From NCBI GenBank assembly GCA_963785035.1, contig CAWATG010000015.1, positions 175,282 through 239,281 on the forward strand: a DNA stretch of 64,000 bases. The letters are read 5' to 3'. The notes under the pieces were generated by a model that was not told the origin of the DNA, did not search any database, and saw nothing but the letters and a program-made list of their open reading frames with translations. The position numbers were made by a program, and so were the translations under genes. The stretch is from an uncultured Acidimicrobiia bacterium (lineage in GTDB: Bacteria; Actinomycetota; Acidimicrobiia; IMCC26256; CAWATG01). The stretch's first letter is position 1, and each line of letters opens with the position of its first letter. Below, one piece after another: positions 1-64,000 of the stretch.

Positions 1-1398
1 GAGCATCTCTGCAATGACCCCGCGGTCGAAGAGGATCCCGAGCGCTACTTCGACCGGGTCATCGAGATCGATCTCTCCGAACTGGAGCCACACCTCGTTG
101 GTCCCCACACGCCTGATCTCGACCGGCCCATTTCCGAGGTGAAGGCTGCCGCGGAACGCGAGGGCTACCCGATGGAGATTTCTGCCGCGCTTGTGGGCTC
201 GTGCACCAACTCCTCGTATGAGGACATCGGTCGTGCCGCGCACATTGCACGGCAGGCCGCTGCTTCTGGCCTGCGGGTCAGGTCGCCGTTGATGATCACG
301 CCGGGTTCGGAGCAGGTGCGCGCAACCATCGCCCGCGACGGTCTGCTCGCAGACCTCGAGGCGATCGGCGCGACAGTCTTGGCGAATGCCTGCGGCCCGT
401 GTATCGGGCAGTGGCAACGCGACGATGTCGCCAAAGGTGAGATCAACACGATCGTCTCCTCGTTCAATCGCAACTTCCCAGCGCGGAACGACGGCAACAA
501 GGAGACGCTCTCGTTCATCGGCTCGCCCGAGACGGTGGTCGCTTTGGCGCTCGGGGGTCGCCTCGACTTCGACTTCACCCGCGATGCGCTCGGCGCCCCC
601 GACGGTACCGAGGTCCGCTTGAGCCCACCAACGGCCGATGACCTTCCGGCCAAGGGCTTCGACCCGGGAGAATCGGGTTTCGTGGCGCCTGCAGCGGATC
701 CGTCGAAGGTGTCGGTGGTCGTCAAACCCGATTCGGAGCGCCTGCAGTTGCTGGAGCCGTTCTCCGCATGGGATGGCTCTGACTACGTAGGTCTGCGCGT
801 CCTGCTCAAGGCCGCCGGGAAGTGCACGACCGACCACATCTCGATGGCAGGGCCGTGGTTGAAGTACCGAGGCCACCTCGAGAACATCTCGGGCAACATG
901 TTCCTGGGCGCCAACAACGCGTTCACGCCAGGTGAGAGCGGTATCGGCATCGACGTTCGTGATGGATCCCGGGAGTCGTTGCCGGTGTTGGCCAAGGAAT
1001 ACCGGGCTGCCGGCATCGCGTGGGTCGCTATCGGCGACGAGAACTACGGCGAAGGTTCGTCGCGTGAGCATGCGGCGATGGAGCCAAGGTTCCAGAATGG
1101 CAAAGCGGTGATCGTGCGGTCATTTGCGCGGATTCATGAGGCGAACCTCAAGAAGCAGGGTGTGCTGGCGCTGACGTTCGCCGACCCGGCCGACTACGAC
1201 AAGGTCCTGGTCGATGACATGGTGGACATCGTCGGCCTTGGCGAGCTCGCTCCTGGCAAGCCGGTCAGGGTCGTGCTCCATCATGTATCGGGCGCCGCTG
1301 ATGAGGTCATGACCACCCACACCATGAGCGACGAGCACATCGCCTGGTTCCGGGCCGGCTCTGCCTTGAATGTCCTGCGCCGACAAGAGCCAGCCTGA
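1..1398 (+). CDS. acn: aconitate hydratase, C-terminal part (5' end lies outside the window); mitochondrial (Aco2-like) type
   Basis: Frame 1 is open from nt 1 (EHLCNDPAVEEDPERYFDRV...) and runs into the listed 419-aa ORF. The blocks SCTNSSYEDIGR, ANACGPCIGQW, GDENYGEGSSREHAA, FARIHEANLKKQG and WFRAGSALN match mitochondrial-type aconitase as I recall it. Confidence 0.9.
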   Translation, partial: EHLCNDPAVEEDPERYFDRVIEIDLSELEPHLVGPHTPDLDRPISEVKAAAEREGYPMEISAALVGSCTNSSYEDIGRAAHIARQAAASGLRVRSPLMITPGSEQVRATIARDGLLADLEAIGATVLANACGPCIGQWQRDDVAKGEINTIVSSFNRNFPARNDGNKETLSFIGSPETVVALALGGRLDFDFTRDALGAPDGTEVRLSPPTADDLPAKGFDPGESGFVAPAADPSKVSVVVKPDSERLQLLEPFSAWDGSDYVGLRVLLKAAGKCTTDHISMAGPWLKYRGHLENISGNMFLGANNAFTPGESGIGIDVRDGSRESLPVLAKEYRAAGIAWVAIGDENYGEGSSREHAAMEPRFQNGKAVIVRSFARIHEANLKKQGVLALTFADPADYDKVLVDDMVDIVGLGELAPGKPVRVVLHHVSGAADEVMTTHTMSDEHIAWFRAGSALNVLRRQEPA

Positions 1399-1424
1399 TC
1401 CATCGAATCGCCACTCCGATGTGG

Positions 1425-1468
1425 CCGGGGGGTGACGCCGCAAAGTTTGGCCCCCGGTATTTCTTTCT
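1425..1468 (+). terminator. possible intrinsic terminator after aconitase
   Basis: A 7-bp GC stem (CCGGGGG 1425-1431 with CCCCCGG 1451-1457) is followed by the T-rich tail TATTTCTTTCT. The 19-nt loop is long, so this is weak. Confidence 0.3.
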
Positions 1469-1486
1469 GCGGGGACTGGACTTATT

Positions 1487-2125: not shown

Positions 2126-2151
2126 CGTTGGTGCAGCCGAAGCGGTAGCGG

Positions 2152-3304: not shown

Positions 3305-3349
3305 GGACCCTGCGGTGTTGTCGGACACGCGGTCACGATGACCAGGCGG

Positions 3350-7431: not shown

Positions 7432-8209
7432 ATGCCTGTAATGCCACTGGTTCTTGGACATCGCGGCGCTCCGACCGAGCGGCCTGAGAACACGCTGGCA
7501 GCATTTGCCCGTGCGCTGGAGGTCGGCGCCGACGGTGTGGAACTCGACGTTCGGCGTACACGAGATGACGTCTTGGTGATCCATCACGATCCGGTGGTCG
7601 CCGGACTTGGTGAGGACGGCGGGGCAGCGCCGATCATCGCACATACTTTCGCCGAGCTCCAGAGCCGTGCGAGTCATATTCCAACCTTGGAGCAGGCGCT
7701 CGATGTGTTGCGCGGCTCGCTCGTGAACATCGAGGTGAAGAATTCGCCGATCGAACCGGACTTCGATGTCGAACATCGTGCGGTGGCGGGGATCGTGGCA
7801 TTGCTGGCAGAACGGCGGAATCGCGATAGCGATGCGATGCGATGGCGATGGCGACCGAGATCGTGTCGTCGTGTCGTCGTTCAACCTTGCGACGATCGAT
7901 CGGTGCCGCGCGCTGGATGGAACCGTTCCAACTGGTCTGTTGGCCTTGGCCGGGTTTGATCTTGCGGAGGCGCTCGAGACCGTCAACACGCACGGACATA
8001 GTGCGCTGCATCCGAATGTGGCGTCATTTGCCGATGGGATCGGCGCACGAACAGTGAGCGAGGCGGCGGCGCTGGGTGTTCTGGTCAACGTCTGGACGGT
8101 TGACTCGCGGGAGGATCTGATCGCGCTCGGCGATGCCGGTGTGCACGCGGTGATCACCAATCATCCGGAGATCGCACGGCGCCTCTACGACGATCGTTAC
8201 GCGTCTTGA
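7432..8209 (+). pseudogene. glycerophosphodiester phosphodiesterase (GDPD), frameshifted
   Basis: The N-terminal part (LGHRGAPTERPENTLAAFARALEVGADGVELDVRRTRDDVLVIHHD) is in frame 1. The C-terminal part (DRVVVSSFNLATIDRC...NVWTVDS...HAVITNHPE) is in frame 2. The switch lies inside a GCGAT-rich repeat tract at 7823-7856. Confidence 0.8.
7823..7856. repeat. short imperfect tandem (GCGAT/GGCGAT) tract inside the GDPD gene
   Basis: The sequence reads cgcgat agcgat gcgat gcgat ggcgat ggcgac. It coincides with the GDPD frame change. Confidence 0.8.
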
Positions 8210-9200: not shown

Positions 9201-9946
9201 GTCGACCTCACGTAATGCCGACACGTTCGACTTGTTATGTCAGGAGATCGTCGCGTGTCGATCGTGTCCGCGGTTGGTCGCCTGGCGAGAGCAGGTCGCA
9301 CGCGAGCGCCGAGCAGCGTTTTCCGACCAGCAGTACTGGGGCCGTCCCGTCCCTGGCTTTGGTGACCGTCATGGTCGGCTGATGGTGTTGGGACTGGCGC
9401 CGGCTGCACACGGCGCCAATCGCACGGGGCGCATGTTCACCGGCGATCGGTCTGGCGACTGGCTCTACGCAGCGCTGAACCGAACCGGATTTGCCAATCA
9501 GGCAACATCGCTGGCTCGTGACGATGGTCTCGGCACTCGATGATGCCTTCGTATCGGCGAGCGTCCGATGTGCACCGCCGGCGAACAAGCCGTCGGTGCG
9601 TGAACGCGACGCGTGTCAGCCGTTCCTCGAACGGGAGTTGGCTTTGATGACCAACGTGCGCGTCATCGTCGCTCTTGGACAATTCGCGTTTGATGCGGCA
9701 CGCCGCGTTCTCGAACTCCAGGGACAGCTCTGGCCCAAGCCGCGACCGCGGTTCGGTCATGGGGTGGAAGTGAGCGTCGGACGCTATGCCGTGCTTGGCT
9801 CGTATCACCCGAGTCAGCAGAACACCTTCACCGGTAAGCTGACCGAGCAAATGTTCGACTCGGTGTTCGTCCGTGCGCGGGTGCTGCTTGCCCAGCACCC
9901 GCGTGCTCCTCAGAGGAACATCGATGTCAACTCTCCGCCCGCGTAG
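9199..9946 (+). pseudogene. uracil-DNA glycosylase, family 5 (UdgB-like), frameshifted
   Basis: [12 protein letters not shown] and [26 protein letters not shown] are in frame 1. [19 protein letters not shown]...LGSYHPSQQNTFTG are in frame 2. The junction is at the GG at 9532-9533 and looks like one extra nt. Confidence 0.8.
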
Positions 9947-11712: not shown

Positions 11713-14700
11713 CTAGAGGCCCGCGAACGCCGCGTCGTAGAGGGCGGCCTGCTCGCGTTCGTGGACGGCAGCGCTACCTGTTGCAGGGCTGGGGCTCCCG
11801 GGGCGCGCCGTGCCTGACACGGTGATCGTCGACGGAACGATGTCGTGCAAGAACTCGACGGCGAAGTGGAACGCGCCCATGTTCTGCGGCTCTTCCTGTA
11901 CCCACATCGCTTGTTCCAACATGGGGTAGCGCTCGACGGTCGCAGCAAGTTCGGCCAACGGCGTCGGGTAGAGCTGTTCAACTCGCGCAATCGCTACGGG
12001 GAGATGAAGCTCGTCGCGTCGCGCGATCAGTTCATGTCCGATCTTGCCGGTGCAGAGAATCAGGCGCCGTACCGTTGCGGGATCCGCGCCGCGATCATCG
12101 AGCATGATCGGCTGGAATCCGCGATCGGTGAAGTCCGTGACGGCCGACGTCGCCGCCGGCATGCGCAGGTAACGCTTTGGTGTGAAGACCACGAGCGGCT
12201 TGCGGATCGGTTCGATGATCTGGCGTCGGAGTACGTGGAAGTACTGCGACGCGGTACTCGGGTAGACCACGCGGATGTTGTCGTCCGCGCAGAGGGTCAG
12301 GAAGCGCTCGAGACGTGCGCTCGAGTGTTCGGGACCCTGACCTTCGAAACCGTGCGGGAGGAGCATGGTCAGGCCACTGCGTTGGCCCCACTTGTCCTCG
12401 GCGGCGACGATGAACTGGTCGATGATCGTCTGTGCGCCGTTGGCGAAATCGCCGAACTGTGCTTCCCAGCAGACGAGCGCGTCGAGATCCGCAACGGAGT
12501 AGCCATACTCGAATCCGAGCGCGGCGAACTCGCTGAGGACCGAGTCGTAGACCATGAAAGGCGCTTGTTCATTGCCGAGGTGCTCGAGAGGGGCGTATTC
12601 GGCCTCGGTGTGGAAGTCCACCAGGGTCGAATGGCGTTGCGAGAACGTGCCGCGTCGTGTGTCCTGTCCGGCGAGTCGAACGGGTGTGCCATCGAGGAGC
12701 AGCGATCCGAATGCAAGAGCCTCGCCGGTTGCCCAATCGACTTGGTCTGCAAGGAAGGACGTCTTGCGCGCTTCGAGGATTCGCCGAAGTTTCGGGTGAA
12801 CCGTGAACCCGTCGGGAAACTCGACAAGCGTCTCGATGATCTGTTCCAGTTGCTCACGCGGCACTGCAGTATCCGCGCAGTGGAGCTTCGTGACGTTTAC
12901 GGGTGCCAGGTGTTGTCCGTCGGGAAAGCTGTCGATCCAGGGGACTGCCGGTGCGTCGTTATGTGTCGCGTCGAAGGCCTCTTGGAGCTTGCTGCGGTAG
13001 TCGTTGAGGGCGGCTTCGGCTTCCTCGAGTGTGATGTCGCCGCGGTTGACAAGTGACTCTGCATAAAGCTTGCGCACCGACCGGCGCTGGTCGATCAGTG
13101 CATACATGCGAGGTTGCGTGAAGGCCGGTTCGTCACCTTCGTTGTGGCCGTAGCGTCGATAGCAGACCATGTCGACGACGACGTCCTTCTTGAAACGTTG
13201 GCGAAATGCGTATGCCAATTGAATGACCCGCACTGCTGCTTCGGGGTCGTCGCCGTTGACATGAAAGATCGGCGCCTGGACAGCCTTCGCGATGTCGGTT
13301 GCATACACCGTCGAGCGTGCAAAATCCGGAGCCGTGGTGAAACCGAGTTGGTTGTTCACGACGATGTGGATGGTTCCGCCGACGTCGTAGCCTGAGATCT
13401 CTGACAGGTTCAGCGTCTCGGCGACGACGCCCTGGCCAGCGAAGGCCGCGTCGCCGTGTAGCAGTACCGGCAGGACGAGCTCGCGGTCGGTGTCGTCGAG
13501 TCGGTCTTGACGCGCGCGTGCCATTCCTTCTACGACGGGATCGACTGCCTCGAGATGGCTCGGGTTCGCTGCCAACGTGATTCGAATCGCGGATCCTTGT
13601 GGCGAGGTCCACGTGCCGGAGGCGCCGAGGTGGTACTTCACGTCGCCGCTGCCGGAGGGCACATCGGGATCCAGTTGGCCTTCGAACTCCCGAAATATCT
13701 GCGCATAAGACTTGCCGACGATGGTGGCCAGCACATTGAGCCGTCCACGGTGGGCCATGCCCATCATGACCTCGGTGGTTCCAGCAGTCGCTGCTGCGTC
13801 GAGCAGGAAATCCAGAAGCGGTACCAGCGTTTCGGAACCCTCGAGGCTGAAGCGCTTCTGTCCCACGTACTTGGTGTGCAAGAACCGCTCGAAGGCTTCG
13901 GCGTTGTTCAGCGCCAGCAGGATGCGCAGCTTCTCCTCGACGGTCACATCAGTGGTGACGCCTTCGACATGCTCTTGAATCCACGCCTTCTCGTCGTGCT
14001 CTTGGATGTGCATGTATTCGACGCCGATGGTTCGTGCGTAGGCATCGCGCAGGATGCCAAGGATCTCGCGCAGCGCCAAGCGATCGCGGCCCGCAAGCTG
14101 ATTCGTCGGGAATTCGCGGTCCAGGTCCCAGATCGTCAGTCCCCAGTGCATGGGGTCCAGTTCAGGATGGGTCTTCGGCTCCTTGCGAGCAAGGGGGTCG
14201 AGATCCGCGATGAGATGACCACGGACGCGATACATGTTGATGAGTTGGTGCACACGCAGAGTCTTTTCGGCCCAGCCGATGGAATCGCTGTCGGGGGCGT
14301 CGTCGCGACTCCATCGGGCCGGCTCATAGGGAACCGCAAAACTACGGAAGACATCGTCATAGAACTCGTCTTCACCCAGCAGGAGTCGGTGGACGAGCCC
14401 GAGGAATTCGCCACTCTCCGCGCCCTGGATTACGCGGTGGTCGTAGGTGCTGGTGAGCGTGACGACCTTGCTGATGCCGAGACGCGCGATCGTTTCGCGA
14501 TCAGCGCCTTCGTACTCAGGCGGGTAGGCAATCGACCCGACGCCGATTATCGCACCCTGGCCGGGCATCAGGCGCGGGACGGAGTGCATCGTCCCGATGG
14601 TTCCCGGATTCGTGAGCGATACGTTCGTGCCGGCGAAGTCGTCCGGTGTGATCTTGCCGACGCGCACCCGGCGAAGGAGATCCTGATACGCGGCATAGAA

Positions 14701-15339
14701 CTGCGCGAAGTCGAGCGTGTCACTGTTCTTGATGTTCGGCACGAGCAACGTGCGCGTTCCGTCGGACTTCTTTTGGTCGATCGCAAGGCCGAGGTTCACA
14801 TGCTGATTGCGGACGACCCCGGGTTTGCCATCGACTTCGACGTAGGTCGCGCCCATGGACCGGTGCTCCTTGAGGCTTCGCACCACGGCGTAGGCGATGA
14901 GGTGCGTGAAGGAGATCTTGCCGCGACCGGTGCGTGCCAAATGGTTGTTGAGGATCTGCCGGTTGATCTCGAGCAGCTTCGCGGGGACGGTTCGCACCGA
15001 GGTCGCGGTCGGTACGCCGAGACTGGCCTCCATGTTCTCAACGATCCGCGCCGCGGCGCCGCGCAACGGGACTGGGACCGGAACCTCAGACGGAGCAATG
15101 ACAGGGACGACCGGCGCCGCCGTGGGAGCAGGTGTCGACACCGGAGATATGGTGGCTGGCGCAACGATTGCGTTGTTGACGACCGTGCCGACGGGCGCGC
15201 CGGCGGGCACATAGTCGTCGAAGAACTCGCGCCAGCTCTCGGCAACGGACTCCGGCTTGTCCAAGTACTCCCGGTAGAGCTCTTCAATGAGGCCGGAGTT
15301 CGGTCCGAATTGCTCGAAGCGTGTTTCTGTCGGTGCCAT
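11713..15339 (-). CDS. kgd: multifunctional 2-oxoglutarate dehydrogenase/decarboxylase E1 (Kgd/SucA with N-terminal E2-like acyltransferase domain)
   Basis: An intact 1208-aa ORF. It has the actinobacterial architecture: an N-terminal region and Pro/Ala linker, an E2-like catalytic block (LTSTYDHRVIQGAESGEFL), then the ThDP-dependent E1 (RGHL.ADLDPL, GMAHRGRLNVL, EAQFGDFANGAQ). Confidence 0.95.
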   Translation of the reverse strand: MAPTETRFEQFGPNSGLIEELYREYLDKPESVAESWREFFDDYVPAGAPVGTVVNNAIVAPATISPVSTPAPTAAPVVPVIAPSEVPVPVPLRGAAARIVENMEASLGVPTATSVRTVPAKLLEINRQILNNHLARTGRGKISFTHLIAYAVVRSLKEHRSMGATYVEVDGKPGVVRNQHVNLGLAIDQKKSDGTRTLLVPNIKNSDTLDFAQFYAAYQDLLRRVRVGKITPDDFAGTNVSLTNPGTIGTMHSVPRLMPGQGAIIGVGSIAYPPEYEGADRETIARLGISKVVTLTSTYDHRVIQGAESGEFLGLVHRLLLGEDEFYDDVFRSFAVPYEPARWSRDDAPDSDSIGWAEKTLRVHQLINMYRVRGHLIADLDPLARKEPKTHPELDPMHWGLTIWDLDREFPTNQLAGRDRLALREILGILRDAYARTIGVEYMHIQEHDEKAWIQEHVEGVTTDVTVEEKLRILLALNNAEAFERFLHTKYVGQKRFSLEGSETLVPLLDFLLDAAATAGTTEVMMGMAHRGRLNVLATIVGKSYAQIFREFEGQLDPDVPSGSGDVKYHLGASGTWTSPQGSAIRITLAANPSHLEAVDPVVEGMARARQDRLDDTDRELVLPVLLHGDAAFAGQGVVAETLNLSEISGYDVGGTIHIVVNNQLGFTTAPDFARSTVYATDIAKAVQAPIFHVNGDDPEAAVRVIQLAYAFRQRFKKDVVVDMVCYRRYGHNEGDEPAFTQPRMYALIDQRRSVRKLYAESLVNRGDITLEEAEAALNDYRSKLQEAFDATHNDAPAVPWIDSFPDGQHLAPVNVTKLHCADTAVPREQLEQIIETLVEFPDGFTVHPKLRRILEARKTSFLADQVDWATGEALAFGSLLLDGTPVRLAGQDTRRGTFSQRHSTLVDFHTEAEYAPLEHLGNEQAPFMVYDSVLSEFAALGFEYGYSVADLDALVCWEAQFGDFANGAQTIIDQFIVAAEDKWGQRSGLTMLLPHGFEGQGPEHSSARLERFLTLCADDNIRVVYPSTASQYFHVLRRQIIEPIRKPLVVFTPKRYLRMPAATSAVTDFTDRGFQPIMLDDRGADPATVRRLILCTGKIGHELIARRDELHLPVAIARVEQLYPTPLAELAATVERYPMLEQAMWVQEEPQNMGAFHFAVEFLHDIVPSTITVSGTARPGSPSPATGSAAVHEREQAALYDAAFAGL

Positions 15340-18106: not shown

Positions 18107-18139
18107 GAAAAATGCCGCGCCGGGGGCGTCCGGTGCGGC
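18107..18139 (-). terminator. rho-independent terminator after the DNRLRE gene
   Basis: The minus-strand RNA reads GCCGCACCGG-ACGCCC-CCGGCGCGGC, a 10-bp stem with one A-C mismatch. It is followed by AUUUUUC and starts 11 nt after the stop at 18150. Confidence 0.55.
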
Positions 18140-18149
18140 CAAAAGCGGC

Positions 18150-20072: not shown

Positions 20073-20076
20073 GTGT

Positions 20077-20478
20077 TCACGGTCCCGTCACGGCGAACTT
20101 GACCCCGTTGAAGGTCGACGTCGGCGGGGATGGCGAGAAGGTCACGGTCGCGGTAGATCCGCCGATGGTCGTCGACCCGCCCCCGAGCGCGACTGCCCCC
20201 GAATCGATTGCCGTTGCGGTAAGTGTGCCGCCGAGGCAGGCGCCCGGGAGTCCGGAGAAAATGATCTTGGTGACGGCGTACCTGGAGTTCGTCTCGTCGT
20301 AGCCGATCGTGAAGTCGTAGACGGCGAAGCCTGACGTGGCGCAGGCCGCGACGGCCGTTGTCCCAGTGCCGACTCCGCCGTTACTGGTGACAGCGAGGGT
20401 CGAGGCCGATGCGGTGGACGTGGTCAGGAGCATCAGCAGCAGGACCCAGAGCCATGAAGTCGTGCGGATCCGGCGCAT
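20077..20478 (-). CDS. small secreted protein, unknown function (operonic with the DNRLRE protein)
   Basis: It has a signal peptide (MRRIRTTSWLWVLLLMLLTTSTASA). The mature part is Gly/Thr/Ala-rich with 2 Cys. Its stop lies 4 nt before the next start. Confidence 0.5.
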   Translation of the reverse strand: MRRIRTTSWLWVLLLMLLTTSTASASTLAVTSNGGVGTGTTAVAACATSGFAVYDFTIGYDETNSRYAVTKIIFSGLPGACLGGTLTATAIDSGAVALGGGSTTIGGSTATVTFSPSPPTSTFNGVKFAVTGP

Positions 20479-20764
20479 GGTGTCAGCGGACCTGCTGATC
20501 GACCGATCGCGACTGCGGTATACACGACTGGCGACGACCTATTTGAGCGGGTCGTCGAACGGCGTCGGTCATCCCGGTGTTAAAGGCCGTGCCCGGGCTT
20601 CCCGTGCTCGCGTGCGTTCCGTCCTGGGCCCGGTGCATTGGAAATTGTGATGGTCCGGGCGCTCGGTGTCGCATATCCATACATCGAGCGATTTCGACCG
20701 TTTCTTGAGCAGAAACCGCTGGTGCCGCGGGCGGGAGTCGTTGCGCCGCCTCAAAATGGTCTTT

Positions 20765-45163: not shown

Positions 45164-45868
45164 CTACAGCGGTGGCGGCGAGGCGCTGAGCTGTGCCGGC
45201 GTCGCGGTTGTGGTGTTGAAGGCCGCCCATTCGTTCGTGACGAACTTGAACTTGCCGATGCTTGCGCCACGGTTGTTCGGCCAGTTTGCGCTCAGACTGG
45301 CCCAGTAGTCGACGCCGCTACCGGCGAGGAGGTGCTGTGACCAGAAAGCGCGATCGTCGGGACCATTGGGGTTGTCGAGGATGAGCCGCGCCTGGAACGT
45401 GCCGTAGACCGCGGCGACGTCGTTGGCAGGGATCGTCCCGCGGGGAGCCCAGAAGTGCCATGCATTACGGCCCGCAGAGAAGTCAAGCTTGCCGCTCACG
45501 CCTTCGGACTCGGTCCGCACCGACATCGGATTCGAGACGTTCCCCCCGAAGTCCTCCCGGTATGCGTCTCCCTTCTCCGCTCCCGAGGTGACCAGGATCC
45601 ATTTTCCAGTGCTCCTGGAGAGCAACCAACACTGCACGGCACGCACCTGCACGCGGGTGTTTCCGGTTCCCGGGTTCAACCCCTGGTTTTGCGGAAGCCC
45701 GTCGGCGAAGAGCACGCCCCATGTGACGGCGGACTGCATGCCGGCGTTGTCATTACCCACCTGGATCTCAGGACCGGGTTTCCACGAGTAACCATCAGGA
45801 AGGGGAATGACACCCTCGTGGAATCCACGCTGGTCCGATGCGATCAGGGCAACTGAGTTGATCCCGCC
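45164..45868 (-). CDS. unknown-function domain protein P1 (paralogue of 47058-47987); 5' end unresolved
   Basis: About 60% identical by eye to the C-terminal ~235 aa of P2. The first in-frame start is the GTG at 45760. Clear in-frame homology (GGINSVALIASDQRGFHEGVIPLPDGYSWKPGPEIQ) continues 36 codons further upstream and overlaps the stop of the preceding ORF. Confidence 0.5.
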   Translation of the reverse strand, partial: GGINSVALIASDQRGFHEGVIPLPDGYSWKPGPEIQVGNDNAGMQSAVTWGVLFADGLPQNQGLNPGTGNTRVQVRAVQCWLLSRSTGKWILVTSGAEKGDAYREDFGGNVSNPMSVRTESEGVSGKLDFSAGRNAWHFWAPRGTIPANDVAAVYGTFQARLILDNPNGPDDRAFWSQHLLAGSGVDYWASLSANWPNNRGASIGKFKFVTNEWAAFNTTTATPAQLSASPPPL

Positions 45869-46887
45869 CGACGGTGGCTGTGGTGCGTGTCCGGTTTGGG
45901 CGCACCTGGCTTGCGGGGCCTGATCGGATGCACGCGGCCTCGGCGACTCACGACGTAGTAGCCGCGACGCTGAGCAGTGGTAGCCAGTGCCACGGCGTCG
46001 GAATCCAACATCCCGGTCGCAGCACCGTGGAACTCCGCGTCTCCGTAGGAGTAGACGCCACCATTTCGGGTCAAGAGGTAGTAGCCCATACCCGAATCGG
46101 TTGACGCGATCGAAGTCACGGCGTCGAGGTGGGGGATCACACCCACGGCGCTGCCGAGGAACTTGGCGTCGCCGAACGAGAACACGCCCCCGTCGGAGGC
46201 AACGAGCCAGTAACCCTTACCGCTTGGTGTCGCGGCCATCGCGACGATTGGGCGGTTGAGCGGCATTCCGCCGGTCGAACCGCGGAAAATGGCATCGCCG
46301 TAGGAGAAGACGCCACCGTCGCGAGCCACCTGCCAGTAGCCCTTACCGCTCGGCGTCGATGCCATCCCGACGACTGGCTGGTTGAGACGAATGTCGCCGG
46401 CGGAACCGTGAAAGGCTGCGTCTCCATAGGAGAACACGCCGCCATCGCCGGCAGTCATCCAGTAGCCGCGACCGCCAGGTGTCGTAGCCGAGTCCACGAT
46501 GGGGCTGGCGAGGCGCAGGGTCGAGGCTGCGCCGAAGAATTGTGCGGAGCCGTAGGAGTAGATGGCGCCGTCAGCTGCGATCTCCCAGTAGCCCGACCCG
46601 TCGGGGGTGGAGACCATGGAGACGATGTTCTGGACGGTCGGTTGGTTCTCGGCGGATCCGAAGTAGCCGACCTCATTGGAAGGTGTCGAGGGTTCGGCAG
46701 TGGCGGTCGAGACCGCACGAGCCAATGTCGTCGCTCTTGCAGGAGATGTGGCGCTTGCGGGGGCGTCGCCCAGTGAGAGTCCGAGGGATACGGAACCGGT
46801 GGCGACGATGGTGGCGAGAAGAGCCCCACCCCAGCGCTGTATATGTCGTTTGGTGTTTTTGGGCGCGTTCGACCAAGGCTGCAACAT
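45844..46887 (-). CDS. secreted protein built from ~6 tandem ~41-aa repeats (beta-propeller-like), unknown family
   Basis: It has a signal peptide (..GALLATIVATGSVSLGLSLGDAPASA). The repeats have the consensus GYW.VA.DGGVFSFGDA.F.GS......LN.P(I/V)VGMA.TP.GK. GGGAGGA lies 6 nt before the ATG at 46887. The C-terminal ~30 aa look non-native. Confidence 0.65.
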   Translation of the reverse strand: MLQPWSNAPKNTKRHIQRWGGALLATIVATGSVSLGLSLGDAPASATSPARATTLARAVSTATAEPSTPSNEVGYFGSAENQPTVQNIVSMVSTPDGSGYWEIAADGAIYSYGSAQFFGAASTLRLASPIVDSATTPGGRGYWMTAGDGGVFSYGDAAFHGSAGDIRLNQPVVGMASTPSGKGYWQVARDGGVFSYGDAIFRGSTGGMPLNRPIVAMAATPSGKGYWLVASDGGVFSFGDAKFLGSAVGVIPHLDAVTSIASTDSGMGYYLLTRNGGVYSYGDAEFHGAATGMLDSDAVALATTAQRRGYYVVSRRGRVHPIRPRKPGAPKPDTHHSHRRAGSTQLP

Positions 46888-47057: not shown

Positions 47058-47987
47058 CTAAGGAGCTTCAGCGAGCGGGGGCGGCGTTGCCCGCAGCTGC
47101 TCGGCAGTTGCCGTCGTCGTGTTGAAGGCCCGCCATTGCGACGTCACGAACTTGAAGCGGCCGATGCTGGCTCCGCGGTTGGTTGGCCACGGCGAGCCGA
47201 GTGTCTGCCAGTAGTCGATACCGGCGCCGGCGAGAAGGCGTGACGACCAGAAACTTCGGTCATCGGGTCCGTTCGGGTCGTCGAGGATCAAACGGGCCTG
47301 GAACGTCCCGAACATGGCCGCGATGTCGGTTGGATCAAGCGTCCCGCGGGGGTTCCAGAAATGCCATGCGTTGCGCCCAGCACTGAAATCGAGCTTGGCG
47401 CTGATGCCTTCGGGTTCCGAACGAACGTCGATCGGTCCTGCACTGTTGTGTCCGAAGTTCTCGGGATAGGCGCCGCCGGACTCCTCCTTGTCGGCGATCA
47501 AGTGCCAGGACCCGGTCGCCTTCGAGAGCAGCCACGTTTGGATCCCGCGCACCTGGACGCGTGTGTTCCCAGTCTCTGGACGCAAGGCGGCGTTGGTCCG
47601 GCGCCCGTCGACGAAGAGCACGCCCCAGGTAACGGCAGCGCGCATTGAGGCTGCGTTGTTGCCGACCTGAATCACCGGCACGTGTTTCCAGTCGACAAGT
47701 GGATCCAAAGGCAACACGCCGTTGTGGGCACGCTGTTGGTCCGAGACGATCAGGTCGACCGAGTTCAGCGGACCAGGTTTCGATGTTGTTTCCGGTTGTT
47801 GCACAGCGGGTCTGGACGTCGCGGGGTTGCGGTGTTGACCGGTCGTTTCGGGGCTCGATGACGGATTCGCAAAAATTCCGATGTCGAATGCGAACATGAC
47901 GAGCAACGTTGCACCGCTCAGAGTGGCAAGCGCCTTCAGGAGCGTCCTCCTCCGGCGGCGACGCCGGCGCCGTGAACGAGTGCGCAT
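47058..47987 (-). CDS. membrane-anchored unknown-function domain protein P2
   Basis: The ATG at 47987 lies 2 nt after the upstream GT stop. The N-terminus is [17 protein letters not shown] plus one TM, followed by a Pro/Ser/Thr linker. The ~235-aa domain has blocks GNTRVQVRGIQTW, DFSAGRNAWHFW, FQARLILDDPNGPDDR, NRGASIGRFKFVT and FNTTTAT. Confidence 0.6.
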   Translation of the reverse strand: MRTRSRRRRRRRRRTLLKALATLSGATLLVMFAFDIGIFANPSSSPETTGQHRNPATSRPAVQQPETTSKPGPLNSVDLIVSDQQRAHNGVLPLDPLVDWKHVPVIQVGNNAASMRAAVTWGVLFVDGRRTNAALRPETGNTRVQVRGIQTWLLSKATGSWHLIADKEESGGAYPENFGHNSAGPIDVRSEPEGISAKLDFSAGRNAWHFWNPRGTLDPTDIAAMFGTFQARLILDDPNGPDDRSFWSSRLLAGAGIDYWQTLGSPWPTNRGASIGRFKFVTSQWRAFNTTTATAEQLRATPPPLAEAP

Positions 47988-47989
47988 GT

Positions 47990-49097
47990 TCAGGCGGTGG
48001 CCGTGGGGTTCGCGAGCCTGGCGCACAGTGCCTCGTATCGATCGGTCACGGTGTTCCAGTCGTACTCCGACTCAGCGCGAGCCTGCAATTTCGCCCCACG
48101 CTCTGCAGCGCCATCGGGGTCGGCATCGACAGCGTCGATGGCCTGTGCGTACTGCTCGGGCGTCGAGAAAAAGCGCCCATCGTCGCCGAGCACCTCACGA
48201 TTGAAGACGACGTCGAATGCGATCGCGGGGACTGCTGCGCCCATTGCGCGGAGCAGCGCAGGATTCGTGCCGCCGACGGAATGCCCGTGGGTGTAGCTGC
48301 GGGCGTGCGCGTACAGGGCGTCGAGCAGATCCAGGTCGTAGACGCTGCCGACGAGCCGGACCCGGCGGTCGCGTGCCGCTAGTTCTTCGATGTGCTCTTT
48401 GTAGGCGGCGCCGTACTTGGCGTCGCCGACGACGACGAGCGGAATCTCCGAGGCGCTGAGACGGTATCCAGCGATGATTTCGGCGAGGTGGTTCTCAGGT
48501 TCGAGACGGCTGACGACGAGGTGATAGCGACCGGGTTCGATCCCAAAATCGCACACCGGCTGGGCGCTCACGTTGCGAAGGATTGGAGCCCCATACGCGA
48601 TGAACGTGCTCTCGGCGCCGAAGCTCGAACGGTAGTAGTCGCCGATTCCCCTCGAGTCGGCGATGATCTCGTCGGCGAGTCGTACACCGAGGCGTTCGGA
48701 GAGCATGTACCAGCGCTTGCCCAACGGCCCCCATTTGGACCGTTTCCACTCGAGTCCGTCGACATTGACTGCGACGGGAATTCGGCGTAGGCGCAGGAGC
48801 GGCAACATCACGGCGTTCGCCACATTGCACATGATGGCGACGTCAACTCGATGGAACAGCAGATGCAGACACGACAGTCCGGTATGGGAGAGGGTTTCTG
48901 CAGCACGAAGCGGCAACGCAGGAAGGTTCACCAACGTCATGCCCCGGTACTCGTGGAGTTTCTGACCTGGGGTTGCGGCAGTAGACGACGACTTCGTGAC
49001 CACGCGTGCTGAGGCGGGTCCCGACTTCTTCTGCCAGTGTTTCAAAGCCGCCGTATCGCGCAGGGACCCCGCGCGTGCCGATGATTGCTATGCGCAT
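47990..49097 (-). pseudogene. glycosyltransferase with DUF1972-type N-terminus (GT4 family), frameshifted
   Basis: MRIAIIGTRGVPARYGGFETLAEEVGTRLSTRGHEVVVYCRNP is in one frame. GQKLHEYRGMTLVNLP...NVDGLEWKRSKWG...HGHSVGGTNPALLRAMG is in the next. The shift is at the GGGG run 48969-48972. Confidence 0.8.
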
Positions 49098-49225: not shown

Positions 49226-50062
49226 TCAGCCACGATAATGGCGACCCACGCCAAGTGCGACGATGGCGACAGCTGTTGCCATAACGCTGCGCGCGACCTT
49301 GCTCATTTTGGAGAGCGCCCTCACGTCGGTGACCGATACCAGATCCGGCGACCGCGCAGCGAGGAGCGCGGCTTCGGCCCTGGCGACACGAGCCCGGGCG
49401 TCGCTCAGCTCTTGTTGCGCGTTGGAGATTTGCAGCTTGAGGCCCGCCGCCTTGTTCTGTCCTTCGGTGAGTTGTGCGAGCACCTTTGCCTGTTCGGGCG
49501 TGCGTTGATCGCCGTTGTAGGCAGCGAATGCCGCGGCTCGCGCCGCGTCGATGTCAGTCCAGTCGATCGCTGTTTGGAAAGCGTTCCAGTCTTGGTTGAT
49601 CGCGTCGAGACTGGCCTGCGTTGTGCGGAGGGCGATGGCTGCGCGGTCCCGCTGGCGGGATGCGACTGCGGCGAGGCCCTCGGTAGCGTACGCGGTGACG
49701 ATTTGGCGGGCGTTCTGCTCGGAGGTTCCGGTATACGTCATTGTGACCGGCGAACCACCCTGGTCTCCGCCGTACGTCGTCACATCGCCGATCGAACCTT
49801 CGTCGACCTTTGCCCTCTTCGCCACAGCACGGGTGACAGATGGGAGGTCCAAGGCGGAGCGAAAATCTGCCACTAATGGATCAATATTGAAGGAACTGTC
49901 CCCGGGATTGAGCGCCTGACCGACGAAGACAACTGCCGTCGCCTCATACGTGGTGGGTCGGCTCAGTGCGAACAACCCGGCGGCAGCGGCCGCCAAACTG
50001 CCGGCAACAGCCAGAGCTATCAACCTCCGAGGCGTCAGATTCAAGAAGCTGGCGATTTCCAT
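49226..50062 (-). CDS. Wzz-like polysaccharide co-polymerase (chain-length determinant), no kinase domain
   Basis: It has N- and C-terminal TM helices flanking a ~200-aa Ala/Gln-rich predicted coiled-coil ectodomain. It sits next to Wzy. Confidence 0.6.
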   Translation of the reverse strand: MEIASFLNLTPRRLIALAVAGSLAAAAAGLFALSRPTTYEATAVVFVGQALNPGDSSFNIDPLVADFRSALDLPSVTRAVAKRAKVDEGSIGDVTTYGGDQGGSPVTMTYTGTSEQNARQIVTAYATEGLAAVASRQRDRAAIALRTTQASLDAINQDWNAFQTAIDWTDIDAARAAAFAAYNGDQRTPEQAKVLAQLTEGQNKAAGLKLQISNAQQELSDARARVARAEAALLAARSPDLVSVTDVRALSKMSKVARSVMATAVAIVALGVGRHYRG

Positions 50063-58589: not shown

Positions 58590-58604
58590 GAGAGACTCAG
58601 ACAG

Positions 58605-59891
58605 ATGAGCGAGGCGTATCCGCGCGTAACGGTGGGCATCCCCACATGGAACCGGGCCGGCTATTTGCGCGAGGCGATTGCAAGCGTTCTCGCCCAGACG
58701 TACACCTCGTTCGTGCTGCACATCAGCGACAACGGCTCGACGGACGAGACGCAAGCGGTCGTGGCGTCGTTCGACGACACGCGCATCGTGTACCACCGCA
58801 ATGATGTCAACGACGGCTGGATCAACAACTTCAACCGCCTGTTCGAGGTGTCTCGCGCCACCGAGTATGTCGTTGTGCTGGGCGATGACGACCTCCTTCA
58901 CCCTGACGCTCTCGAGCTTGCGGTCGCCGAGATGGACGCGCACCCGAATGTCGGGATGCGCCATTCTGCGTTCGACGTGATCGATTCGGACGGAGCGGTC
59001 CTCGCCGAGGGCGCCAACTGGCTGGGGGATCGTCGGCTGGAGTCCATCACTGCAGGACATGACTTCATCCGCGTGCTGATGAGTCATGGCGTCCTGTGTG
59101 CGTCGACGGCGATGGTTCGAACCGCTGCTGTGCCGAGGATCCCTTTCGAGGACCGCTACGAACCGGCGGCCGACTTCGCCCTGTGGCTCCACATCGCGTT
59201 GGAATGGGATATTGCCTACTCCTCGGCTCCGATGTGCCAGTACCGCATGCACGGCTCGAGCGACTCCGCACGGTGGAATCGGCTGACAAAGGCGGGCTAC
59301 ACAGGTAGCTACCGTTATGACCTGCGGATGCGGCGGGTCAAGCGACGATTTCTCGATGCGAACGCCGATCGCCTTGGTGACGTCAGGCACCTGCGTCGGG
59401 TCGTGCAGTGGTCTGCGATACGCCGTGTGATCGGACGCACGCTGGGACCGCGTATCGCCGAGCCACTCAAGTCCATGGCGGCGCGCATCCAGAGGCGCGA
59501 TGGCCACGGTGCTGCTCGATCCCTGCCCTCCCCAGGGTCGTCAGGGCAGAGCACCGAGGCGCTCTCGTCTGAGGCGCCATTGCATGTGGTGATCGTCATG
59601 CGGCAGCGCGCATCTGCGTCGACCGGTAGCCGTCCCGCACCTGAGGTCGAAGCCCGGGCAGGTCTGCGAACACTTTCCACGATGGTCCGCCGGGCGGGGC
59701 GATGGATGTACAACCGAGCCGAGGCCGGCGTTGGGGGACCACAGGTGCATGTCGCGAACGTGCAGGCATTATCTGGAGTCCCAGGGCCACGTGGTGAGCG
59801 TTGTCACGCCGTTCGCCGCGCCATGGCCGCTTCACTTCGGTTGCGCGACGATCGGTTGGTCGCTGCACCAGGTCAGTACCTCGCGCGCTGA
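58605..59891 (+). CDS. glycosyltransferase family 2; 3' boundary unresolved because the ORF runs on into the next GT
   Basis: VTVGIPTWNRAGYLREAIASVLAQTY..FVLHISDNGSTDET...VVLGDDDLLHPD are GT-A motifs, including the DxD-like DDD. There is no stop in this frame until 59891. Confidence 0.7.
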   Translation: MSEAYPRVTVGIPTWNRAGYLREAIASVLAQTYTSFVLHISDNGSTDETQAVVASFDDTRIVYHRNDVNDGWINNFNRLFEVSRATEYVVVLGDDDLLHPDALELAVAEMDAHPNVGMRHSAFDVIDSDGAVLAEGANWLGDRRLESITAGHDFIRVLMSHGVLCASTAMVRTAAVPRIPFEDRYEPAADFALWLHIALEWDIAYSSAPMCQYRMHGSSDSARWNRLTKAGYTGSYRYDLRMRRVKRRFLDANADRLGDVRHLRRVVQWSAIRRVIGRTLGPRIAEPLKSMAARIQRRDGHGAARSLPSPGSSGQSTEALSSEAPLHVVIVMRQRASASTGSRPAPEVEARAGLRTLSTMVRRAGRWMYNRAEAGVGGPQVHVANVQALSGVPGPRGERCHAVRRAMAASLRLRDDRLVAAPGQYLAR

Positions 59892-60934
59892 AGCGTGGCG
59901 GCGGTTCTGGCATGCGCGTCTGATCGCAATGGCATTGCGTCACAAGCGGCGCACGTGGCGTCAGCGAACGGACAACCTGCACGTCGTCTACTACACCCAG
60001 TGCCCGTTGTCGGCACATGTGGCATCGCGCCAACGGGTGTCGGGGTCGAAGGTGGTGCTCGTTGGCCACTAGTGATGGATCAGAGGGCCCCGCACCTGGG
60101 CGTGTCCCTCGCGACAACCCGGCGATGGGGCCTCGTCGAATATCGGAGCGTCTCGCTCGCCGAATCAAGCGGTTCGAGCACGCTGTCGCGCTGGAGGTGG
60201 ACGCCCTGGTGTTCGTCTCGGAATTCCTCGCCCTGGAGCTTTTCGCCGAACTACCGGCGGCGCGGAGCAAGAGGTGGATGGTGGCGCCGAACTTTCTGCC
60301 CGACGACTGGGCCACCAGGGGCGCAGTGTCGACCGACGCGGAGGAGCGCCCGCTTCGCGATCTTGTCAACGTCGGGAGGTTGTCGAAGGAGAAGAACCAG
60401 CGCTTCGTCCTCGACGTTGTCGCAGCCGCCCGTGAACGAGGTAGGCGGCTGACCTTGACGATCGTCGGTTCGGGATCCGACGAGGAGGCGCTGCGCGCGC
60501 ACTGCCGGGCCCTGGAGCTCGATGATCAGGTCGAGTTCGCAGGGTCCATCGAGGACGTTGCCGCCGTCCTGCGGCGCCACCGTGTGTACGTGCACGGTTC
60601 TCGCCATGAGACCTTCGGCATCGTGCTGATCGAGGCGATGAGTGTCGGACTCCCCGTGTTTGCTGCCCCGGTCGAAGGCGTGAAGGAGGTCTTCCGTGAC
60701 CAGATCGAAGGCCGTTACATCGATCTCGAGTCGCCGGGAGAGTCGGCGGAGATCCTTCTGGCGGCACTCGATGATCCCGAGTGGATGCGTGTGACTTCAG
60801 CGGCGGCGGCAGATCGTGTGGCCTCGGCGTTTCGGGCTTCGGTGGTCGGTCCTGAGCTTGTCGCGTTCCTGCGGTCCCTGTGGTCGACGCCTGGGGCTGC
60901 GATGGGCCCAGACGCGGTCCTAAGCGCCCGCTGA
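59706..60934 (+). pseudogene. glycosyltransferase family 4, fragmented over three frames
   Basis: YNRAEAGVGGPQVHVANVQAL is in frame 3, the same frame as the upstream GT2. (L)ESQGHVVSVVTPF...LHVVYYTQCP...GSKVVLVGH is in frame 1. SDGSEG...ALVFVSEF...GRLSKEKN...GSRHETFGIVLIEAMSVGLPVFA.PVEG..E is in frame 2. The shifts are at about 59768-59773 and 60068-60072. The true start is uncertain. Confidence 0.65.
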
Positions 60935-60991
60935 GGAGGTCACGCGATTACGCTCGGTATCCCCAATAGCTCTTTCAGGAAAGAAGCCAAC

Positions 60992-61441: not shown

Positions 61442-62697
61442 CCCATCCCGAGTCTGCCCTGGGAGTAACAGATCCCACGATGGCCGCCATCGTCGCGCGC
61501 GAGGAAGTTCGGCAGAACACCACGATCCAGTTGATCGCGAGTGAGAACTTCACGTCGCCTGCGGTCATGGCTGCGCAGGGAACCGTCCTGACGAACAAGT
61601 ACTCCGAGGGGTACCCGGGCAAGCGGTACTACGGCGGAAACCAGGTCGTGGACGAAGCGGAGGAACTGGCACGGACCCGAGCGTGTGCGCTGTTCGGGGC
61701 GGACCACGCGAACGTCCAGCCCCATTCGGGCGCCAACGCCAACATGGCGGTGTTCCTGGGCCTCTTCGAGCCCGGCGACACGTTGATGGGAATGCGCCTC
61801 GACCAAGGCGGACACCTCACGCACGGTTCTCCGGTCAACTTCAGCGGCAAGCTCTACAACTTCGTTGCCTATGGCGTCGATCCCGACACCGAAGTGCTCG
61901 ACTATGACGTCATTCGCGCGCAGGCGGTCGCCGAACGTCCTAAGGCGATCATCGCCGGCGCAACTGCATATCCGCGCATCATCGACTTTGCCGCGTTCCG
62001 CTCGATTGCCGATGAGATCGGCGCGCTGCTCATTGTCGATGCGGCGCACATCGCTGGTTTGATCGCCGGTGGCGCGCATCCATCGCCGGTTCCGTATGCC
62101 GACGTCGTGAGCTTCACGACGCACAAGACGCTGCGCGGACCGCGTGCGGGTGCGATCCTGTGCCGGGAGCAGTATGCGAGCGCGATCGACAAGGCGGTGT
62201 TCCCGGGGCTCCAGGGCGGTCCGCTCATGCATGTCGTCGCAGCCAAGGCTGTCGCCTTCCACGAGGCGTCCCAGGACAGCTTCCGTGTCTACGCAGCAGA
62301 AATCGTGGCGAATTCCGCCGCGCTCAGCGCGGGTCTGACCGCCGAGGGATTCCGCATCGTTTCGGGAGGGTCGGACAACCACCTGATGTTGGTCGACCTA
62401 CGCCCGTTCGGCGTGACGGGCAAAGTGGCCCAGGAGGCGTTGGACCGCGCCGGTATCACCTGCAACAAGAACGCTATTCCCAATGACCCCGAAAAGCCCT
62501 TTGTCACGAGCGGGTTGCGGCTCGGTACCGCAGCGGTCACGACTGCGGGCATGGGTGTGGCAGAGATGGGCGAGATAGCGACGTTGATCGCACGGGTTCT
62601 GCGCTCGCCGAGCGACGACGCCGTCATTGGTGACGTTCGCAACGCCGCAGGGCTGCTCTGTTCGAAGTTCACGCCCTACCCCGACCTGGCCGTGTGA
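61438..62697 (+). CDS. glyA: serine hydroxymethyltransferase
   Basis: [49 protein letters not shown] and [10 protein letters not shown] (PLP Lys) are present. The start overlaps the rpiB stop as ATGA. Confidence 0.95.
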
Positions 62698-62740
62698 TCG
62701 TTCGAGGTATGGCCGCGGACGCGGCGGGGGGACGCGGGCG

Positions 62741-63970
62741 GTGATCGGCTACCTCGTTGTGCTCAGCGTCGCGGCGTTGGTGACGTTTGCATGCACGCCG
62801 GTGGCTGGTTGGATCTCGTGGAGGATCGGCGCAATCGCCCAACCCGGCGAGCGCGCTGCGCACTCGACGCCGACGCCTCGTCTCGGTGGCGCCGCAATGT
62901 TCGTCGGCTTTCTTGCTGCAATGGCCGTCGCCTGGCGAATGGAACAGTTCCACGAGATGTTCGACGGTTCGACAGAACCGCTGGGCGTCGTGCTGGGAGC
63001 AGGTGCGATGTTCGCCGTCGGAGCGTTGGACGACGTGCGCGAGGTGTCGCCGCCGGCGAAGTTGGCGGGTCAGGTCTTCGCGGGCAGCGTGCTTTCCCTG
63101 CTCGGCGTGACGATGCTGTTCTTTCGTGTGCCGTTCGCCTCGAACAACACGATCGTGCTCAGCACCGATATCGCCCCGCTTGTGACGGTGCTCGGTGTGG
63201 TCCTCATGGCGAACGCGCTCAACCTGATCGACGGGCTCGACGGGCTGGCAGCCGGAATCGTGATCATCGGGGGATCGGCCCTGTTTCTGTATTCGGACCG
63301 ATTGTTCAAGCGAGGATTCCTCGAGGGTTCCAATGTCGCTCCGCTGATAGCAATCATTGCGGTTGGGGTGTGCGTCGGGTTTCTGCCGCATAACTTCAAT
63401 CCGGCGAGGATTTTCATGGGTGACGCGGGGGCGATGTTCCTCGGGCTGCTCATGGCCGTACCCACCATCACGATCGGTGGTCGTGCGGACTACCAGTACA
63501 GCGGTCAGACCTTCTTCTACTTTGCGCCACTGTTCATTCCGGTGGTCATCCTCGGTGTCCCCATTGTCGACACCGTGTTCTCGTTCTTTCGACGTGTGTT
63601 GAAGCGTTCGGCGTTTCATGTTGCCGACAAGGATCACCTGCATCACCGGCTGATGCGTCTGGGTCATGGCCCGCGCCGGACGGTCGTCATCCTCTGGCTC
63701 TGGACTGCATTGCTCTCGAGCGTGGCATTGCTACCCACGTATACGAACGAAGGCAATGCCCTGGTGCCGTTCGTAGTCCTGGCATTGCTGATCGTTCTCT
63801 ACTCCTTCTTCCATCCAAGGCTCCGCACTGCGAAGGAAGAGGCTGAGTTTGCGCAGCACCCGGTGGTCGGTGACGGTGGCGACGGTTGGGGGACTGACGA
63901 TGTCTCCGTGACCGACGACGCAGTGATCGATTTGGATTCGCGGCGCAGGGCTCCCGGACAGGGTGCCTGA
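62741..63970 (+). CDS. wecA: UDP-GlcNAc:undecaprenyl-phosphate GlcNAc-1-phosphate transferase (WecA/Rfe, MraY family)
   Basis: A polytopic membrane protein with TPRLGG, GALDD, NALNLIDGLDGLAAG, NFNPARIFMGDAG and DK.HLHH motifs. The glyA-wecA order matches other actinobacteria. The GTG start at 62741 is inferred. Confidence 0.85.
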   Translation: MIGYLVVLSVAALVTFACTPVAGWISWRIGAIAQPGERAAHSTPTPRLGGAAMFVGFLAAMAVAWRMEQFHEMFDGSTEPLGVVLGAGAMFAVGALDDVREVSPPAKLAGQVFAGSVLSLLGVTMLFFRVPFASNNTIVLSTDIAPLVTVLGVVLMANALNLIDGLDGLAAGIVIIGGSALFLYSDRLFKRGFLEGSNVAPLIAIIAVGVCVGFLPHNFNPARIFMGDAGAMFLGLLMAVPTITIGGRADYQYSGQTFFYFAPLFIPVVILGVPIVDTVFSFFRRVLKRSAFHVADKDHLHHRLMRLGHGPRRTVVILWLWTALLSSVALLPTYTNEGNALVPFVVLALLIVLYSFFHPRLRTAKEEAEFAQHPVVGDGGDGWGTDDVSVTDDAVIDLDSRRRAPGQGA

Positions 63971-64000
63971 GGAGCCAATTCGGGGCCTTGGGTTTGACCG

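Follow-up and report, generated by a model that had tools for sequence, protein, structure and literature searches.

Roughly one third of the genes in this soil actinobacterial contig are disrupted by single stray bases, which very probably represent scattered indel errors in the consensus of a contig deposited for an uncultured Acidimicrobiia-like actinobacterium; in the living organism these genes are almost certainly unbroken. Within the window, by which we mean the whole 64,000-nucleotide stretch analyzed here, the lesions are confined to indels, relatives carry intact copies of the affected genes, and selection on these genes is not relaxed, a combination that fits consensus or assembly errors and does not fit pseudogenes. 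Most of them would be single-base insertions in arbitrary contexts; the errors number about 0.4 per kb where checking was possible and would have arisen during sequencing, assembly or polishing, most likely in a long, low-coverage long-read metagenome assembly. Since each error shifts the frame, gene callers report shortened pieces, so that roughly every third gene looks like a pseudogene. One frame change, in a GT4 glycosyltransferase gene at 60070, is probably genuine.

All 13 frame disruptions named in the original prediction exist, with Pfam profile coordinates running on from one frame to the next: Aminotran_5 (2-57/51-371), GDPD (1-154/135-243), UDG (1-49/48-136), DAHP_synth_2 (1-148/142-200/197-337/334-438), Bac_transf (1-51/36-177), DUF1972 (4-45/123-185) and PhosphMutase/Metalloenzyme (1-75/95-226). 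Deleting one base per site produced single full-length Pfam matches, including Aminotran_5 2-371 of 371 in the cysteine desulfurase, Bac_transf 1-177 of 179 in the WbaP-like transferase and Glyco_transf_4 1-155 in the DUF1972/GT4 glycosyltransferase, and gave the GT4 gene a new Glyco_transf_4 match across both junctions. The predicted direction also holds, with +1 shifts throughout apart from one −1 shift in DAHP synthase, and kgd is unbroken as described. We called sites by nucleotide alignment to relatives, blastn, frameshift-aware alignment and Pfam profile coordinates; the frame changes lie where they had been placed, with exact positions displaced by up to about 10 nt (Table 1). Frame decoding from GC3 and codon usage was noisy at 63% GC: it flagged the 45873-45884 site and mislabeled several other regions. 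An Rfam scan of the window returned one tRNA and nothing else.

Table 1. Frame-disrupting sites in the window, with kgd as intact control (L numbers, Logan contigs of relatives).
Gene	Gene span	Site	Strand	Change in window	Relatives
Cysteine desulfurase	3304→2152	3136	−	Extra base, G on + strand; context caaGcga, no homopolymer	L166 without extra base, intact 383 aa
GDPD gene	7432-8206	7827-7856	+	16 extra nt (5 codons + 1), GCGAT(G)-type repeat	L161/L166 intact, 253 aa; alignment differences +2+1+3+3+1+6 nt
UDG-family gene	9433-9946	9531	+	Extra C	L161 without base, intact 170 aa
kgd (intact control)	11713-15339		−	None; 1208 aa	L161/L166 1208 aa, gap-free; dN/dS 0.086
Class II DAHP synthase	16767→15402	15720-15726	−	One base missing, no homopolymer; placed within ~7 nt by frameshift-aware alignment and blastn	L161, L162, L163 intact, 454-aa protein P0001
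DAHP synthase		16137	−	Extra base, A on + strand; context cgAgc	L161, L162, L163 without it
DAHP synthase		16293	−	Extra base, T on + strand; context gcTcg	L161, L162, L163 without it
PQQ-type sugar dehydrogenase (GSDH)	29575→28338	28461	−	Extra T, TT vs T in relatives	Not in L164 (96.7% identity) nor L165
GSDH		28627-28629	−	Extra base, 2-4 nt from G5 run	L164 and L165 without base, same 5-base run
ApgM-like metalloenzyme	29720-30884	30405-30407	+	Extra G; G4 run unaltered; ggggttaGc	L165 intact, 401 aa; ggggtta-c
178-aa ORF upstream of rho (additional, doubtful)		31472-31473	+	One base missing near 3' end	Compared with L165
WbaP-like sugar transferase	~41283-42825	42378-42379	+	Extra A, AA vs A in relative	L168 intact, 512 aa
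Beta-propeller-repeat protein (additional)	ORFs 45844..46887 and 45164..45760	45884-45885	−	One base missing; codon-usage HMM frame switch at 45873	L168 single unbroken ORF
DUF1972/GT4 glycosyltransferase	49136→47990	48966-48975	−	Frame change behaving as +1 (Pfam basis)	
Hypothetical protein (additional)		49240-49260 (~49246)	−	One extra base; 278 aa	L170 318 aa
GT4 glycosyltransferase, N-terminal domain		59770	+	Extra T, TT vs T in relative	L167 without extra T, reads through as ...ANVQKYLESQGH...
GT4, N-domain/C-domain junction		60067-60073	+	+1 frame change, CAC-TAG-T	Shared with L167
GT4 (additional)		60915	+	Extra C, 6 codons before stop; C-terminal tail altered	Missing from both L167 copies of segment

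The comparison drew on three samples, which supplied seven Logan short-read contigs of relatives at 91-97% DNA identity; these contigs cover 38.7 kb of the window and reach 12 of the 13 reported sites, while L169 ends at 48331 and L170 at 48994, short of the DUF1972 site. The relative at 96.7% identity, from SRR24775931, may belong to the same species as the window. This orthologue comparison, proposed alongside the original prediction, found relatives intact at 11 of the 12 sites reached. Those 11 and three to four additional sites are specific to the window: the count of 13 proved too low, as further indels lie at 45884, ~49246 and 60915, with a doubtful one at 31472. Altogether the window-specific lesions comprise 12 insertions of one base, of which one belongs to the 16-nt GDPD repeat expansion, and three deletions of one base. 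The 15-nt difference in GDPD repeat length is probably genuine and may reflect natural variation, while the net +1 disrupts the frame. The extra base near 49246 is ambiguous in position and may lie in a CCC run, and the 178-aa ORF may be non-coding, as it has no Pfam match and unusually high DNA-level conservation (dS 0.045). For the cysteine desulfurase, three Logan orthologues of 383 aa fall into one shared 90% cluster. Scans of public genome and metagenome contigs with kgd found no relative above 73% amino-acid identity; the relatives found served for synteny and blastx and were of no use for comparison at nucleotide level. The truncated fragments (P0252, P0414, P0416-P0419) are exact entries from a single 268,461-bp NCBI/ENA contig whose deposited gene calls are these fragments, and the indels are thus present in the public record.

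The expectation that the disruptions fall mostly at short homopolymers was not borne out. Aligned to relatives, the extra bases lie at 3136, 9531, 16137, 16293, 28461, 28627, 30405, 42379 and 59770, and none of ten resolved insertions falls in a run of three or more; seven are isolated bases and three form a dinucleotide, where a random insertion would be expected to adjoin an identical base in 48% of cases. The G runs that had been flagged have the same length in relatives, the extra base lying about 2-6 nt from the G5 run at 28631-28635 and the G4 run at 30398-30401, and the GG at 9532-9533 in the UDG gene is also found in the relative. A nearby G run is thus poor ground for a homopolymer verdict, as the true site can differ by a few bases. 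Among the resolved insertions the added bases are G, C, A, T, T, G, G, A, T and C, and no common motif that might point to a methylation-motif artefact was seen around them. Replication slippage would favor runs; the insertion contexts are arbitrary. Homopolymer-concentrated errors are what Nanopore, HiFi, 454 and Ion Torrent usually produce, and the placement seen here, atypical of consensus errors from these platforms, counts against an artefact. On the evidence of these alignments the homopolymer subtype of artefact is excluded; an artefact in general is not.

The lesion spectrum is narrow. We found no in-frame stop codons in 19 tabulated genes or in the corrected alignments, and no larger out-of-frame deletions or IS elements: all lesions are 1-nt indels apart from the one repeat expansion. 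Among the split genes, dN/dS is 0.07 for DAHP synthase, 0.09 for the ApgM-like enzyme, 0.12 for GDPD, 0.17 for the cysteine desulfurase, 0.24 for GSDH and 0.26 for UDG, pairwise values that are blind to decay younger than about 1% divergence. Overall, corrected genes span 0.07-0.38 and resemble their intact neighbors (0.03-0.28). Polarized amino-acid changes number one window-derived against 12 relative-derived in DAHP synthase, despite its three splits, and six against 11 in GSDH. Relaxed selection on the window's branch was thus not detected by dN/dS or polarized changes, within the same limit of about 1% divergence.

These observations bear on very recent true pseudogenization, in which selection on many genes was lost, or a mutator arose, and indels became fixed in about one third of the genes. 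In its favor, the indels stand in the deposited sequence, a real frame change shared with a relative exists at least in GT4 (60070), and decay typically strikes envelope-polysaccharide genes early, such as those hit here (WbaP and three glycosyltransferases). Moreover, the relatives are other strains than that of the window (92-97% DNA identity), so very recent strain-specific mutations are still conceivable. Neutral decay, however, produces nonsense and frameshift lesions in comparable numbers, as pseudogene spectra show, whereas the window holds about 15 frameshifts without any nonsense codon. DAHP synthase carries three independent indels with just one window-derived amino-acid change, the affected genes are intact in relatives from three samples, and insertions at non-repetitive positions prevail, whereas bacterial indels are known to center on homopolymers and to favor deletions. 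Mass pseudogenization is known in Mycobacterium leprae, Sodalis glossinidius and other recently host-restricted bacteria, where many housekeeping and envelope frames are likewise disrupted; decaying genomes also carry nonsense mutations, larger deletions and IS elements, together with raised dN/dS and lineage-shared lesions, while among the reported sites only the GT4 60070 frameshift is shared with a relative and 11 others are not. We consider pseudogenization very improbable. Genuine indels in a free-living soil strain at the onset of decay, or in a mutator that inserts single bases non-repetitively, strike us as more improbable still; they would mean that about one third of genes, including DAHP synthase, were inactivated before nonsense mutations or excess amino-acid changes accrued.

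Two further readings would account for the indels differently. A chimeric consensus of mixed strains, with indels where haplotypes merged or were mispolished, would be a sub-type of the artefact explanation and involves no separate biology. Public samples contain several related genotypes side by side (92-97% identity), the GDPD site lies within a length-variable repeat, and the errors cluster unevenly along the window: between 50.4 and 59.7 kb, a stretch of about 9 kb judged by full-length Pfam matches only, none was seen, against about four predicted from the mean rate. Such haplotypes, however, differ mainly by substitutions, so merging should yield no single-base insertions; the relatives show no 1-nt indels here, and L161, L162 and L163 have gap positions in common. 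We regard this origin as very unlikely. Recoding, in which programmed ribosomal frameshifting or transcriptional slippage restores function, finds some support at GT4 60070, with its conserved shift, a 0-frame TAG at the site and a downstream domain dN/dS of 0.20. The other sites share no motif, slippery sequence or homopolymer, and they are missing from close relatives, whereas a programmed site would be conserved; as an account of the window, recoding is barely credible.

Consensus error therefore remains our preferred reading: sequence error over decay, as originally argued, stands for 11 of the 12 comparable sites and fails for GT4 ~60070, shared with L167, and for the homopolymer mechanism. 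Frameshift "pseudogenization" is a recognized error of higher-error-rate long-read assemblies (PMC12007338). Tools such as Kastor (PMC12007338) and IDEEL-type length-ratio checks deal with indel errors that fragment genes in long-read or poorly polished assemblies. In such assemblies, as here, single-base indels split conserved genes into adjacent ORFs in different frames. As in long-read assembly errors generally, other lesions are missing, essential genes are not spared, and orthologues from accurate assemblies are full length; the indels here differ in not being homopolymer-concentrated and in an insertion-to-deletion ratio of about 4:1. One of the 13 sites, GT4 60070, is demonstrably real and counts against an artefact, as does the uneven spread of the errors along the window.

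The main meaning of these results is a data-quality warning, as places of the contig carry about one frame-breaking error per 2-3 kb, and the same errors probably extend across the whole genome bin. Through them the public protein set holds truncated versions of DAHP synthase, cysteine desulfurase, UDG, WbaP and others. Any metabolic reconstruction, estimate of completeness or count of pseudogenes made from the contig would be wrong, for example by presenting the shikimate pathway as falsely missing.

All that remains for biology is a single conserved split, that of the GT4 glycosyltransferase gene. At ~60070 the sequence GGCCACTAGTGATGG and the frame change are identical in L167, from an independent sample, which argues that the change is real. 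The full-length homologue P0256 reads ...VVMVSH-SSGSE... straight over this junction. The downstream ORF has a possible TTG start at 60062, preceded by AAGGTGGTG on inspection, and CAC-TAG-T is not known as a slippery site. The break could serve as a site of +1 recoding or as a functional split of this GT-B glycosyltransferase, the simpler reading being a gene divided into two ORFs. Alg13/Alg14 is a GT-B glycosyltransferase split into two polypeptides. The GT4 gene would resemble it in a break between two Rossmann-like domains, conserved in the relative, and in a downstream ORF with putative start codon and ribosome-binding site. A half-decayed gene is equally possible, given an N-domain dN/dS of 0.54 on small counts (C-domain, 0.20). 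Alignments of the GT4 N-terminus to remote homologues suggested extra paired shifts at 59610-59663; these are net zero and resemble alignment noise, and we rejected them. Upstream, a GT2 ORF starting at 58620 may join GT4 without a stop or may conceal another indel.

We found that Pfam profile coordinates carry over between reading frames at every gene in which a disruption had been reported (see table), and that skipping one base per site restores single full-length profile matches. The PQQ-type sugar dehydrogenase (GSDH) lies in three pieces (...HRFAGDAP; DGAVGPIYEY...VVNG; EVERAS...SFGEDGFGELYVLSQ), and the corrected glycosyltransferase GT4 matches Glyco_transf_4 over residues 17-204, across both junctions, a match absent from each fragment alone. 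The sequence thus does contain all 13 frame changes of the original prediction, with the +1/-1 directions as it had them; the DUF1972 site (~48970) was read from Pfam only, the relative contig stopping 22 nt before it. Exact look-ups traced the window's proteins in the public collection to one NCBI/ENA contig of 268,461 bp. The deposited gene calls contain truncated pieces of DAHP synthase (a 203-aa middle fragment), the ApgM-like metalloenzyme (269 aa), cysteine desulfurase (330 aa) and GT4 (269 aa), showing that the frameshifts are part of the deposited sequence.

The window has a GC content of 63% over 64 kb and, in profile searches, an actinobacterial gene order (aconitase, NifU, cysteine desulfurase, Mrp/ParA, kgd, DAHP synthase), followed by argS-lysA-hom-thrC, then rho-prfA-prmC and a polysaccharide gene cluster. 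Kgd, encoded by an intact gene, is 60-73% identical to its nearest counterparts in Acidimicrobiia-type MAGs (species representatives and JGI metagenome contigs). Closer relatives came from Logan assemblies of SRA runs: the frame-corrected DAHP synthase retrieved an intact 454-aa protein at 95% identity, the same search with GSDH retrieved proteins at 95% and 90% identity, and more contigs were reached from intact window proteins through other members of their 90%-identity clusters. Seven relative loci, aligned with the window at a nucleotide identity of 91-97%, cover 38.7 kb in total with the same gene order. In this comparison of orthologous loci, proposed as a check in the original prediction, the flagged genes are each one full-length ORF in the relatives: cysteine desulfurase (383 aa), GDPD (253), UDG (170), DAHP synthase (454), GSDH (412/432), ApgM (401) and the WbaP-like transferase (512).

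Coordinates of relative loci, window differences and profile fragments
Feature	Window position	Detail
Locus L166	2064-18124	covered
Locus L165	23227-33146	covered
Locus L164	27613-29934	covered
Locus L168	38851-46288	covered
Locus L169	46292-48331	covered
Locus L170	48994-50384	covered
Locus L167	59688-61571	covered
One extra base each	3136, 9531, 16137, 16293, 28461, 28627, 30405, 42379, 59770	DNA alignments
One base absent	near 15720-15726	DNA alignments
GCGAT-type repeat	7827-7856	+16 nt vs relatives
Base missing, newly found	45884	beta-propeller-repeat protein cut into two called ORFs
Extra base, newly found	near 49246	318-aa protein shortened to 278 aa
Extra C, newly found	60915	changes GT4 tail
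Base missing, newly found	31472	inside doubtful 178-aa ORF
Intergenic differences of 1-2 nt (a few)	29711, 40898, 41017
Aminotran_5		Pfam profile 2-57, 51-371
GDPD		Pfam profile 1-154, 135-243
UDG		Pfam profile 1-49, 48-136
DAHP_synth_2		Pfam profile 1-148, 142-200, 197-337, 334-438
Bac_transf		Pfam profile 1-51, 36-177
DUF1972		Pfam profile 4-45, 123-185
Metalloenzyme		Pfam profile 1-75, 95-226

Overall, the compared 38.7 kb hold ~15 window-specific frame-breaking indels, affecting about a third of ~35 genes. Full-length Pfam matches in the ~25 kb of window lacking a close relative suggest few or no further breaks there, and hence an uneven error density. The description of the indels as mostly homopolymeric did not survive the alignments. 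The relatives match the window in the length of the G5 run (28631-28635) and of the G4 run (30398-30401), the stray base lying 4-6 nt off; of ten resolved insertions, seven are isolated bases, three double a single base, and no insertion falls in a run of three or more. An identical neighbour is expected for 48% of randomly inserted bases. No motif is common to the inserted bases or to their contexts.

Under neutral decay, nonsense mutations arise about as often as frameshifts. After frame correction the affected genes contain no stop codons, their lesions being indels only. Against the relatives, dN/dS is 0.07 for DAHP synthase, 0.09 for ApgM, 0.12 for GDPD, 0.17 for cysteine desulfurase, 0.24-0.38 for GSDH and 0.26 for UDG, and 0.03-0.28 for intact neighbour genes. 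When amino-acid differences were polarised with outgroups, DAHP synthase, with its three independent indels, showed one window-derived change versus 12 in the intact relative, and GSDH six versus 11. Finally, insertions at non-repetitive positions exceed deletions by ~4:1, unlike known bacterial indel mutation, which favours deletions and arises by slippage in runs. Lesion spectrum, dN/dS, polarised differences and mutation type together favor sequence error over gene decay, and this interpretation held for every tested site but one, GT4 60067-60073, where the relative L167 has the same sequence. Biologically the frame disruptions are of little interest: they are a data-quality artefact, apart from one small but genuine oddity in GT4. 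Long-read metagenome assembly would be compatible with a contig of 268 kb from an uncultured lineage of soil type. Residual consensus errors, and the frameshift "pseudogenisation" they cause, are recognised in higher-error assemblies (PMC12007338).

At the GT4 exception, the window reads GGC CAC TAG TGA TGG: TAG TGA closes the N-domain frame, and the C-domain is read on in +1; full-length homologues read uninterrupted across the break (...VVMVSH-SSGSE...). The break (region 60040-60130 of the window, 350-440 of L167) is identical in L167, which comes from another sample and has its two ORFs overlapping in the same way; the frame change is thus real and arose before the two lineages separated. 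Purifying selection acts on the C-domain ORF (dN/dS 0.20); the N-domain value of 0.54, from 26 changes, is less clear. A candidate start codon for the downstream ORF, TTG at 60062, follows a Shine-Dalgarno-like AAGGTGGTG. GT4 may thus be either a GT-B enzyme stably and naturally split into two ORFs or a half-decayed gene.

Upstream, the GT2 ORF (58620-59600) reads without a stop into the GT4 start (...SSEAPLHVVIVMRQR...), reflecting either a natural GT2-GT4 fusion or an undetected indel near the GT2 C-terminus; at ~59583-59589, in GTGGTGA, a GTG start overlaps the TGA of another frame. Between GT4 and rpiB, L167 (1250-2660, versus window 60900-60935) carries a 1.4-kb insertion without counterpart in the window, encoding a Kelch-repeat protein and a 50-aa ORF and flanked by a duplicated segment of ~20 nt (ccatacgggtcctaagcgc).

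Elsewhere, a 2.6-kb segment (18124-20730) beside a tRNA gene (20768-20839, minus strand) differs from L166 and looks like a variable islet: the window encodes two secreted proteins, one of 640 aa with three CBM96 modules and one of 153 aa, and L166 has a PIN-toxin/antitoxin pair in this position beside the tRNA gene. Upstream of rho, 30977-31513 is far better conserved in DNA than its surroundings (dS 0.045 versus 0.13-0.47); called as a 178-aa ORF of odd composition, without Pfam or Rfam matches, this stretch may represent a conserved leader that is non-coding rather than a protein. In the beta-propeller-repeat protein, the C-terminal domain (45167-45784) has a paralogue (47074-47690, ~67% DNA identity) in the 322-aa gene next to it (47058..48026); neither has a Pfam match. 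The ApgM-like gene (29720-30884; cofactor-independent phosphoglycerate-mutase family) adjoins hom-thrC (thrC 27220-28287) at the expected place of thrB, presumably in keeping with the alternative homoserine kinase role proposed for this family.
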